Source of the DNA: an uncultured Candidatus Poseidoniales archaeon
GTDB taxonomy: Archaea; Thermoplasmatota; Poseidoniia; Poseidoniales; CAYMED01
Assembly: GCA_964389655.1 (NCBI GenBank)
Contig: CAYMED010000008.1
Location: forward strand, 22,052-86,051
Length of the DNA stretch: 64,000 nt
Direction: 5' to 3'
In this document: piece by piece, positions 41,225 through 44,760 of the stretch
Position numbering within the stretch: position 1 is the stretch's first letter
Layout of the letters: every line of letters starts with the position of its first letter
Program-made: the position numbers and the translations under genes
The notes under the pieces: model-generated
Database searches by the model: none
Told to the model about the DNA's origin: nothing
Seen by the model: only the letters and a program-made list of their open reading frames with translations

Positions 41225-41299
41225 ATCTCCCCTAATATTGAATGCATCAAAGGGCCATCTTCCCAAGCATTGAATGCTCGCCTCCCACCCCTTGCGACC

Positions 41300-42310
41300 A
41301 TGCGGGATGTCATACTTGTCGTGATGATCTCGCTTTGCCTTTTTTCAGCTGGTTGCGTCGAGAAAATCCCTGAAGAGGCGGTTGACCCAAATGGTGATGA
41401 TGATCAAGATGGCTTACCGAATGGCTGGGAATTGGAACAGGGTCTTGACCCAAATAATGGGCAAGATGCCCCAAACTGCATGGGCGCTGTTGAATACTGT
41501 CTACGGGCATATGACAATTTTACGTTTGCTGAAACCCACAATTCGTTTGCAACATCGGATGATGGTGTTTACTATCCTGCATCAAATCATGACACAGGGC
41601 TTGACGCTCAATGGAATGGTGGCATTCGTGCGTTTATGCTGGATACACATCACCGTTCTGATACTGAAACCGATCAAGATGACATTGCTTTCTGCCATGG
41701 GAGTAACGATGCACTCATTCACCCATGCCTGTATAGTGAAGTTGATGCATTTGTTTGGCTTGAACAGTTACGCACTTTCATGGATTCAGACTCAAACCAG
41801 ATTGTAACTTTGTTGTTGGAGAATTATGTTCCTTCCAGCCACCTTGAGTACCTATTTAACCAGACAGGAATGCTTGAACGTGCCTATGTCCATCAGATTG
41901 GCGATACGTGGCCAACATTGGGTGAAATGATACTTTCAAACCGCACTTTAGTGATCTTTTGGGATGGTTCTGATGACTCATCTTATCCTTGGCTACATCA
42001 TGCTTGGACACATAGCTGGGATACCCCATATGGTGAAAGCGATGAAAGTGAGATGTCTTGCCAAGTTGGGCGTGGTAATGGAGATCAACCCGTTTGGCAC
42101 CTAAATAATTGGTTGAGCAATGCGTTTGGTCTTTCAGATCCCCTGCGCGCTGAGAGTGTCAATAATTATGAATCACTGCGTCAAAGGGCACTTGGATGCT
42201 GGGAAGAGGTTGGAAATCGGCCCACATTTATTGCAGTTGATTGGTGGGAAGATGGGGATGTCGTAAGTGTTGTAGAATCGCTTAATTCAGTCACACACTG
42301 GAGTACCTAA
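41300..42310 (+). CDS. Secreted or lipid-anchored PI-PLC X-domain (PLC-like phosphodiesterase) protein
   Basis: Lipobox-like LFSAGC, an Asp-rich DDDQDGLPNGWE..GLDP repeat, ETHNSF, GIRAFMLDTH, FCHG, IVTLLLEN, RPTFIAVDWW. Confidence 0.85.
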   Translation: MRDVILVVMISLCLFSAGCVEKIPEEAVDPNGDDDQDGLPNGWELEQGLDPNNGQDAPNCMGAVEYCLRAYDNFTFAETHNSFATSDDGVYYPASNHDTGLDAQWNGGIRAFMLDTHHRSDTETDQDDIAFCHGSNDALIHPCLYSEVDAFVWLEQLRTFMDSDSNQIVTLLLENYVPSSHLEYLFNQTGMLERAYVHQIGDTWPTLGEMILSNRTLVIFWDGSDDSSYPWLHHAWTHSWDTPYGESDESEMSCQVGRGNGDQPVWHLNNWLSNAFGLSDPLRAESVNNYESLRQRALGCWEEVGNRPTFIAVDWWEDGDVVSVVESLNSVTHWST

Positions 42311-43165: not shown

Positions 43166-44470
43166 ATGCCAGATCCTGTCTTAAGTCCAGATGGTAAATT
43201 CATGTGGACTGGAAGTGAATGGATTCCCGCACCTCCTGCTGTTGAACCAGAACCAGCCGCACCGAGTGAACAAGCACTCAATATGCAGGACTCTGTCATC
43301 GGTGGAGATGTTGTCCACAGCACGGTCATCAACAATGATCCAACGACCGTCACGACCGCAGTAATCGCAGCTCTACAGCAGATGGGTATGGTCAATCAGA
43401 CACCAGCCGCACCCGCAGCACCCCCCCCTACACCCGAAGTCGAGTTGCCAGCCGCATTCAGTGTTGGGGACCATGTCGAATATCACAGCCCAACCAATGC
43501 TCGCTGGCTGGACCGCTGCAAAGTTGTCGCTGTCAATGATGATGGAACATACCGGATTGAAGTACCCAAGAGCACGAGAGTGGAAACCAAGCATGCTGTT
43601 GTCATTGGTTCAGCACTAGGTACCATTCGACCTGCGAGTCCGCCATACAACGCTGGTGACCGGGTATTGGTCAATTGGAAGAATTACGGGACTTACTACC
43701 CTGGGAAAATTATGGCAGAAAATGAAGATCATACATTTTCAATATTTTTTGATGATGAGGATTGGGAGTATAATGTCGAATGGGGTAGAATCGAGCCACT
43801 TATGGAAGACTCTTCAGACGAGGTTCAAGACTATCTCGAGAATGTCGTAGATGCCGAGAGAGAGCTAATCGAGGCGTTCCAGATGTTTGATGAAGAAGGA
43901 ACTGGAACCATTTCTGCGCGAAAATATTTCGAAATCCTCACCGAAATTGGTGATGACCCGATTTCTGTTGATGATGTGTTGGAAGACTTCGCAGCCCTTG
44001 GAATCGGGATAGATTCTGAAATCGATTATCGAGAGTTGGCCAAATACATGGTCAGCACCGAAGGTGGTGCTGAACCTGAGCAGCAAAAAACCGAGGTGAT
44101 CATTCGTGATGCAGAGATTGTTGATGGATGCCTCAAAGGGTTTGCATATGCCCACCCTAAACTCGGCGAAGGACCCGTGAATACGTCTAGAATTATGGGG
44201 ATTTCCTACGATGAAAGGGCAACTGCGCGTGTGGAAACACGAAATTCGATGTATGTTGTTGGACCCACGGGTTGGAAGGTCATACCAGATGGCCACCCAT
44301 TCCTGATTCGATCCTCGGTCGGTGACCGAGTCGAGGTTGAATGGCAGGGAAGTTGGTGGACTGCGCAAATCCTAGAATGTGATGATGAGAGATACCTGAT
44401 TACATACATCGGATTCGATTCGAGTTGGGATGAATGGGTCGGTCCGGAACGAATTCAGAAAATATCCTAA
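43166..44470 (+). CDS. Multidomain Tudor / EF-hand / chromo-barrel (Agenet-like) protein
   Basis: N-terminal SPDGKFMWTGSEWIP motif; two Tudor/SH3-like barrels; EAFQMFDEEGTGTIS..EIDYREL EF-hand pair; HPKLGEGPVNTS domain; VGDRVEVEW..WW.A.I..YLITYIGFDSSWDEWV barrel. Confidence 0.85.
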   Translation: MPDPVLSPDGKFMWTGSEWIPAPPAVEPEPAAPSEQALNMQDSVIGGDVVHSTVINNDPTTVTTAVIAALQQMGMVNQTPAAPAAPPPTPEVELPAAFSVGDHVEYHSPTNARWLDRCKVVAVNDDGTYRIEVPKSTRVETKHAVVIGSALGTIRPASPPYNAGDRVLVNWKNYGTYYPGKIMAENEDHTFSIFFDDEDWEYNVEWGRIEPLMEDSSDEVQDYLENVVDAERELIEAFQMFDEEGTGTISARKYFEILTEIGDDPISVDDVLEDFAALGIGIDSEIDYRELAKYMVSTEGGAEPEQQKTEVIIRDAEIVDGCLKGFAYAHPKLGEGPVNTSRIMGISYDERATARVETRNSMYVVGPTGWKVIPDGHPFLIRSSVGDRVEVEWQGSWWTAQILECDDERYLITYIGFDSSWDEWVGPERIQKIS

Positions 44471-44485
44471 TCACGTAGTGATTAA

Positions 44486-44632
44486 ACGCTACACAACCTC
44501 GGGTGAAGGCCAGTGCGTACACCTACAACTCTAAACCTCCTTTATGACGAACAAAGAAATGCCAAGGTTGAGACACAGAATACGGTGTATGTCGTTGGAC
44601 TTAATGATTGGAAAATTCGTAAACGACCATCC
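44486..44632 (+). pseudogene. Decayed partial duplicate of an internal domain of the upstream gene
   Basis: VRTPTTLNLLYDEQRNAKVETQNTVYVVGLNDWK matches VNTSRIMGISYDERATARVETRNSMYVVGPTGWK. The preceding LGEGP codons are frameshifted (ctcgggtgaaggccagtg vs ctcggcgaaggacccgtg). Confidence 0.75.
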
Positions 44633-44683
44633 ACTGAACTGATTCTATTAGCCGGAAAGTCAAGAAGTGAGGCCAATGACGTC

Positions 44684-44760
44684 TTGCAGCCTCGGGATCG
44701 GGGCGAGGGGCCCGAGGTGTGCTTCACCTCGCCGGGTGTGCAACTGTGAACCCTCGTTCC
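44684..44760. ncRNA. Candidate GC-rich structured element (family unassigned)
   Basis: Overlapping stems CCTCGGG/CCCGAGG, CGAGGTG/CACCTCG, GGCGAGG/CCTCGCC, CGAGGG/CCCTCG and TTGCA/TGCAA in a less GC-rich context. Confidence 0.35.

Follow-up and report, generated by a model that had tools for sequence, protein, structure and literature searches.

How an archaeon comes to encode a single protein that joins Tudor-like barrels to a calmodulin-like lobe, and what such a protein does, are the questions raised by this locus. The names of the homologues place the window, the whole 64,000-nt stretch of DNA analysed here, in the Poseidoniales (Marine Group II). The gene and its parts, all on the plus strand, are as follows.

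43166–44470 (+): whole gene of the Poseidoniales Tudor–EF-hand family; 434 aa, ATG start, defined by the open reading frame and homologues
43175–43237 (+): conserved two-Trp motif, SPDG.x.W.G..W.P; residues 4–24
43277–43390 (+): conserved 'QDSV-GGD' strand motif and helix; residues 38–75
43454–43636 (+): barrel 1, strongly conserved, predicted SH3/Tudor-like fold; residues 97–157, from the predicted model and alignment
43643–43801 (+): barrel 2, Tudor-like, of PHF20/53BP1 type; residues 160–212, from structure and cage alignment
43847–44059 (+): EF-hand pair resembling the calmodulin C-lobe; residues 228–298, loop 1 at 43889–43924 and loop 2 at 44000–44035
44084–44305 (+): fourth domain, all-beta, related to small phage proteins; residues 307–380, from profile links via relatives
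44312–44464 (+): barrel 3, Tudor-knot/chromo barrel of MRG15 type; residues 383–433, from Pfam, structure and cage alignment
44495–44620 (+): decayed second copy of the fourth domain, directly downstream of the gene; 45% identity, one in-frame TGA

Pfam, PDB sequence searches, an AlphaFold model and fold matches together bear out the three barrels and the EF-hand pair that an earlier note had read from this DNA; the fourth domain and the two conserved N-terminal modules had been missed there. In the AlphaFold model (mean pLDDT 66, pTM 0.32) three beta-barrels, all small, are accompanied by a lobe of two EF-hands and by one more domain made entirely of beta strands; the low global confidence is what separate domains on linkers would be expected to give. 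The two-Trp and QDSV-GGD parts are conserved yet unfolded in this monomer model. No catalytic domain was found in the 434-aa protein, and hydropathy, the only measure used, gave no signal peptide or membrane helix (19-residue maximum 0.84). A promoter and terminator scan of this archaeal DNA with a bacterial model returned matches at chance level.

The earlier note had raised misassembly as a way in which the finding could fail, and an assembly chimera or eukaryotic contamination might be suspected from the genome contamination estimate of 5.7% and the slightly low GC around the gene (0.45 versus about 0.48). Against this, the flanking genes are archaeal (cdc6, rps6e, eIF2-gamma, Dph2 and rpl10e), and the same domain architecture is found in dozens of independent genomes: in at least 120 homologues at 64–85% identity among the matches listed, and at 80 GTDB loci, some of them on contigs of 0.2–1.5 Mb. 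Moreover, overlapping contigs from public runs tile the gene (no single listed contig covers the whole stretch), and 26 of the 32 strain differences that they show in it are synonymous. Misassembly and chimerism of 43166–44470 are excluded, and we give this explanation next to no weight.

The core gene is present in about 85 of 301 Poseidoniales genomes, with full-length orthologues spread across the order, and was not found in the 306 other Thermoplasmatota genomes searched. IMG/VR yielded no relatives of the full protein, and the ESM Atlas gave only Thermoplasmatota clusters of the same family. To the earlier note's concern that the architecture might already be widespread and annotated, the answer is divided: it is widespread in Poseidoniales, and some copies carry the NCBI name 'Tudor-knot domain-containing protein', but our literature search found no paper that describes the family and none that joins Poseidoniales with Tudor or SPFH proteins. 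We regard it as a real, order-specific and apparently unpublished family. The 434-aa copy is 78–83% identical to Thalassarchaeaceae-type copies, and the only genome of the same genus (a sister genome, 83% complete) has a distant variant alone, 48% identical over the Tudor–EF part; transfer of the gene between Poseidoniales lineages is possible. A shorter variant with two Tudor barrels and the EF lobe lies at L123:1822-2688 in the sister genome.

Barrel 3 is the most readily classified of the parts. Its residues 385–431 pass the Pfam cut-offs for both Tudor-knot (PF11717; 29–31 bits, cut-off 20.8) and Agenet (27.6 bits, cut-off 27), and it superposes on the MRG15 chromo barrel (2f5k) with Z 10.4 and an rmsd of 0.7 Å over 54 residues. 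Five aromatics line its cage (W393, W398, Y414, F417 and W421); each of these positions keeps an aromatic residue in no fewer than 111 of 112 homologues, and they align with the cage positions of MRG2/Eaf3. Barrel 2 falls below the Pfam cut-offs for Tudor_3, Tudor_2 and Tudor_5 (residues 164–203), with 24.5 bits against a Tudor cut-off of 25.8, whereas a homologue, L024, passes (31.6 and 32.2 bits); barrel 2 superposes on the PHF19 Tudor domain with Z 9.4 and an rmsd of 1.9 Å. Its cage residues W171, Y/F178, F/Y195 and D197 are each conserved in 120 of the 120 homologues listed, Asp199 stands in the place of the fourth cage aromatic, and these places line up with PHF20L1/53BP1. The cages were assigned from established knowledge and from PMC5906684 (Kaur, Iyer, Subramanian & Aravind 2018). 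The cage motif FFDD.DW that had been proposed for this barrel stands in part: F195 and D197 are conserved, but its Trp (W200) is Val in 103 of the 120 homologues listed and therefore lies outside the family cage.

Barrel 1 matches no Pfam family and has S108, L115 and V133 at the places equivalent to the cage (by manual register with barrel 2). Two barrels and not three therefore look like readers, in agreement with the earlier note. Barrel 1 is missing from some orthologues. Barrels 1 and 2 together can be aligned to tandem Tudor domains, with SGF29 giving Z 8.9 but an rmsd of 9.9 Å, and Foldseek multi-barrel matches to viral proteins were weak and uninformative. In the sister genome G001, one protein (L122:3831-5021, minus strand) repeats barrel 1 four times in tandem and also has a coiled coil and, at its C terminus, a QDSV module.

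Both caged barrels are acidic (pI 4.2), as would be expected for basic peptide ligands, and the EF lobe is acidic too. Barrels 2 and 3 have nearly invariant cages of methyl-reader type, and their putative ligands are suggested by likeness to known readers. With these cages, the acidic barrels and no catalytic domain, the protein fits an adaptor or the scaffold that the earlier note had proposed. The family resembles the eukaryotic readers MRG15/Eaf3/MRG2 and PHF20/PHF19/53BP1/SGF29 in fold (Z 9–10.6, rmsd 0.7–1.9 Å) and in the cage positions of barrels 3 and 2, respectively. It differs from the MRG/Tudor readers in sequence (20–36% identity) and in the absence here of an MRG domain and a chromatin-complex context, and from the Tudor readers in its cageless barrel 1 and in the Asp of barrel 2.

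The best PDB sequence match of the EF-hand pair is the calmodulin C-lobe (residues 228–297, E 8e-12), and the best 60 PDB matches listed are all calmodulin or calmodulin-related; the likeness to calmodulin claimed in the earlier note is borne out. The Pfam model EF-hand_7 matches residues 232–295 below its cut-off. With the calmodulin C-lobe, myosin light chains and centrin the lobe shares the helix–loop–helix pair and the EELIEAF.FD and LT.xG.. pattern. An identification as calmodulin itself was rejected: there is a single EF pair and not four EF-hands, set as one lobe inside a multidomain protein, and the loops do not carry the full set of calmodulin ligands (Glu12; Asp/Asn at 1, 3 and 5). 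Loop 1 has Lys at position 12 (K253) in the source copy, and loop 2 is degenerate, opening with an invariant Gly279 and missing the Asp at positions 1 and 3; its first ligands are absent in all orthologues, and this loop is dead throughout the family. Both features had been noted before, but the Lys is not family-wide: across the GTDB loci (79 orthologues), position 12 of loop 1 is Lys in 37 and the canonical Glu in 34. This natural Glu/Lys switch offers a direct test of calcium signalling in Poseidoniales.

Where these parts came from has no single answer. The closest relative of barrel 3 found outside the family is a chromo-like domain of bacterial type that forms part of a CHAT/TPR protein (55% identity, compared with 28–30% for MRG15/MRG701), the only outside relative found for barrel 1 is an algal Tudor-repeat protein (27%, weak), and the EF lobe leads to calmodulin; the origin therefore looks mixed. 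The label 'eukaryote-like' accordingly holds best for the EF lobe and weakly for barrel 1, but barrel 3 is nearer to the bacterial protein. Acquisition of the EF lobe from a eukaryote by gene transfer is a suggestion that we offer.

Chromo-like domains with cages are described in bacteria and, rarely, in euryarchaea, and the bacterial proteins are secreted, with EF-hands among their fusions (PMC5906684). The Poseidoniales family resembles them in its prokaryotic SH3-fold barrels, conserved aromatic cage, tandem copies and EF-hand fusion. Unlike the bacterial proteins, which are secreted and in many cases joined to peptidases, caspase-like ones among them, the archaeal family has neither signal peptide nor enzyme and is confined to one archaeal order; it also has a lobe of calmodulin type and a link to an SPFH protein (below). 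Most of what is known of prokaryotic chromo/Tudor domains concerns secreted bacterial proteins for which no ligand has been identified, and these domains bear on the source of the eukaryotic readers of methyl marks; a conserved family that is not secreted, in very abundant ocean archaea, offers small soluble domains that are open to direct test.

The earlier note had also entertained an effector aimed at eukaryotic partners, which would enter eukaryotic plankton and bind host methyl-histones or calmodulin targets. The calmodulin-like lobe and the algal contig that supplies the barrel-1 relative could be read this way. However, the protein lacks the export signal that extracellular bacterial chromo-like proteins have (PMC5906684), the gene is conserved across free-living Poseidoniales, some forms are fused to an SPFH scaffold, and the match of one homologue to the XopAW model is negligible (13.5 bits, cut-off 120). 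We consider an effector very unlikely.

The flanking genes of the 80 GTDB loci are not conserved and fall into 30 neighbourhood types. Their recurrent neighbour is a two-gene operon encoding a helical protein of about 175 aa and an SPFH-fold protein of 400–480 aa; the next most shared flanking family occurs in 4 of the 30 types. The SPFH gene or its helical partner was found in 18 of the 80 loci (fused in 6, head to head in 10 and about 5 kb away in 2); for scale, a 12-kb interval is about 0.6% of a 1.9-Mb genome. Eight independent proteins of 859–869 aa carry a 430-aa N-terminal extension whose homologue has the SPFH fold, the Tudor–EF-hand part being fused at the SPFH C terminus, and in six genomes of genus g17 the operon is adjacent or one gene away. 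On the protein tree (144 columns, with many forks left unresolved) the linked cases occupy six distinct places and span both large families; fusion is confined to one clade, and in five other groups the gene lies beside the operon. The remaining 62 loci are not near the operon, and in the source genome the gene and the operon (G000:C38:2082-4023, with a 174-aa helical partner) lie on different contigs. This patchy linkage may preserve, in places, a single ancestral arrangement and not repeated recruitment, and in either case no other link to a neighbour survives; alternatively, the SPFH operon may be an insertion hot spot.

Consistent with a link, the SPFH gene is present in 80 of 85 carriers, and genera without it also lack the Tudor–EF-hand gene; this count is confounded by kinship and genome shrinkage, the genera without both having genomes of 1.3–1.6 Mb. 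The SPFH gene occurs in 160 of 301 Poseidoniales, half of which (80 of 160) have no Tudor–EF-hand gene, and SPFH relatives are present in other Thermoplasmatota that lack it. Across the two families, the two-Trp motif and a zinc ribbon can stand in for each other: the motif is swapped for the ribbon in genus g17, and it terminates one SPFH partner protein. A predicted complex of residues 30–300 with the SPFH tail (315–475) scored 0.02, which is evidence neither way.

The SPFH partner has no Pfam match by sequence, and its assignment comes from its predicted model, which matches flotillin (Foldseek E 1.3e-8), erlin, HflK/C, stomatin and vault protein and superposes on the stomatin SPFH domain with Z 9.5 and an rmsd of 3.1 Å over 104 residues. 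The SPFH domain leads into a long coiled coil; a zinc ribbon lies at the C terminus, and there is no membrane anchor. The helical partner matches NCBIfam LIMLP_15305 weakly (26.8 bits, cut-off 210), a family for which the literature gave no function, and nothing informative was found for it in the ESM Atlas. SPFH proteins form membrane-bound cages, of which the coiled-coil C termini are the cap (cited in PMC11188069), and the modelled fold suggests that the partner would form one too.

Scaffolds that combine an SPFH domain, a coiled coil and a zinc ribbon are known from two systems, YdjI of the Bacillus subtilis PspA operon (PMC11237479) and the SPFH protein of methanogen 'Meth_adaptin' ESCRT loci (PMC11188069); the partner here shares this layout, has no membrane anchor and is encoded together with the small helical protein. 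By contrast, PspA, ESCRT-III and Vps4 were not noticed in the flanks here, which were read by eye without profiles, and the accessible parts of both papers mention no Tudor or EF-hand adaptor of SPFH systems.

The QDSV motif is found in other Poseidoniales proteins, including the upstream neighbour of the source-genome SPFH operon, which is the sole other clear QDSV protein in that genome. In this operon region (L121:2082-4974, G000:C38) the QDSV motif sits in a membrane protein with a zinc ribbon, alongside the helical and SPFH proteins. The idea that the motif marks all SPFH-operon neighbours was weakened: it holds for one subfamily, and the common subfamily gave 1 clear case in about 19 loci. 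In several genomes (L132:2844-4184, L133 and L134) genes for a TPR protein with a DSV-type motif and for a PP2C phosphatase extend the SPFH operon, a hint of signalling linked to phosphorylation. The two-Trp motif had also been tried as DUF2510/WW, for which Pfam gave no support.

Outside the core domain order, which is common to the 80 GTDB loci, the ends of the protein vary: some copies have an extra barrel, an extra fourth domain or a 109-aa insert, and others have lost barrel 3. In P0197 (L182:5123-7366) two other domains and, at the C terminus, a pair of membrane helices take the place of barrel 3; this copy shares a 90% cluster with ordinary copies, and the two-helix ending recurs in P0204 and P0211. 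The fourth domain, too, leads outside the family. Residues 307–380 have no direct Pfam match and no PDB sequence match, but when 1.84 billion proteins were searched with a profile, the domain turned up in small proteins of 64–96 aa, some of which match PHROG families or sit in phage-like gene runs. These small relatives match DUF6957/DUF6634 weakly; one path runs from residues 307–380 to P0170 (HHalign 98.3%) and from P0170 to DUF6957 (24.5 bits, cut-off 27). Several marine membrane proteins carry the domain in their tails, and tblastn found it in no GenBank phage. Directly downstream of the gene, the decayed second copy is probably a pseudogene remnant, to which the 78-aa open reading frame at 44513–44749 also belongs; intact tandem fourth domains occur in the relatives L084 and P0102. 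Newly reported here are the connection to SPFH by fusion and neighbourhood, the fourth domain with its phage kinship and the variant anchored in the membrane.

Several of these observations would suit an anti-virus or conflict module, in which the protein is a variable sensor or decoy for invader proteins, possibly passing them to the SPFH scaffold: presence is patchy within genera, C-terminal modules are swapped quickly even inside one 90% cluster, a decayed module lies downstream and the fourth domain is common to small proteins of phage early type. However, PADLOC returned no match, the protein carries neither a toxin nor an enzyme domain, its gene has no defence genes as neighbours and the conserved core has a mean column identity of 73%, unlike most arms-race genes. 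We judge such a module rather unlikely.

Our preferred reading, held tentatively and with somewhat less than even confidence, is an adaptor role: with no enzyme domain, the cytoplasmic protein would serve an SPFH membrane scaffold and grip methylated or otherwise cationic Lys/Arg. It is placed at the membrane because of the SPFH fusion and adjacency, the variant with membrane helices and the occurrence of its fourth domain and QDSV motif in membrane-protein tails; this context points to a role at the cell membrane rather than at chromatin. The 434-aa protein would be a set of loosely joined binding modules at the inner membrane face, working with a flotillin-like SPFH scaffold. Given that SPFH C termini form the cage cap, fusion at this end would present the module of the 859-aa proteins on the cytoplasmic side, at the tip of the cage, and the free form would dock either there or on common partners. 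Through cation–pi contacts, barrels 2 and 3 would grip client proteins by their methylated or otherwise cationic Lys/Arg side chains, and the EF lobe would clamp an amphipathic helix, independently of calcium in the Lys12 source copy and perhaps in a calcium-dependent manner in the Glu12 orthologues. The net role might be protein sorting or assembly at a membrane microdomain. The flotillin-like scaffold provides the first concrete place to search for a partner and moves attention from chromatin to the membrane.

Chromatin is nevertheless where the nearest solved folds act: MRG15, PHF19, SGF29 and SETDB1 are histone readers, and Poseidoniales are reported to have 'acidic quadruplet' histones of their own (10.1101/2025.06.26.661778). 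The barrels might read methyl marks on such histone-fold or other nucleoid proteins, and the source genome encodes a histone-fold homologue (C16:47132-47968). Yet this protein has no long lysine-rich tail, histone-fold matches also occur in genera without the Tudor–EF-hand gene, no SET enzyme was found in the source genome and the context links are all to the membrane and none to DNA genes; a chromatin reader is unlikely. The histone-fold protein (G000:C16:47132-47968, plus strand) is a divergent multi-histone-fold protein that was missed by PF00808 and recovered by BLAST, and is probably the 'acidic quadruplet' histone of the same study.

Every methyl-reader reading is weakened because a writer enzyme was not found: 101 Poseidoniales genomes gave one partial SET match, and the sole match to the PrmA model in the source genome is a HemK-like/BirA fusion (L177:514-1956, minus strand; G000:C18), named from its motifs as a putative HemK-like methyltransferase with a biotin-ligase-like domain. 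A bolder form of the adaptor reading, which we consider doubtful, is a membrane-cortex signalling layer made of a flotillin-like cage, an adaptor reading methyl-Lys/Arg, an unrecognised writer, a calcium lobe in some lineages and shared tags. If it existed, such a layer would be without known parallel in non-Asgard archaea, and the tags (two-Trp, zinc ribbon and QDSV) would wire membrane proteins into a network.

Aromatic cages in general bind quaternary amine and sulfonium groups, and such compounds are common in seawater. The protein might instead be a sensor of small molecules or lipid head groups, its cages binding betaine, choline, trimethyl-lysine or DMSP and not proteins; an archaeal SPFH/ESCRT locus described in PMC11188069 includes the betaine-binding protein ProX. 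However, no output domain (kinase, DNA-binding or transporter) is present, and the acidic surfaces and the Tudor/chromo folds are typical of peptide binding. A sensor of this kind seems to us improbable, and we reserve a small but real share for readings outside those set out here.

Elsewhere, Poseidoniales are said in PMC9258230 to have calcium-binding families, which are not named there, and Tudor domains are not mentioned. Three other proteins of the source genome have EF-hand-like loops (G000:C2:66563-68803, C9:3-500 and C21:5378-7252), in agreement with that remark. Upstream of the gene, 41270–42310 (plus strand) encodes a probable lipoprotein with a TSP3-like calcium repeat, for which the Pfam TSP3 match is weak; by eye, this product has the look of a PI-PLC-type domain.
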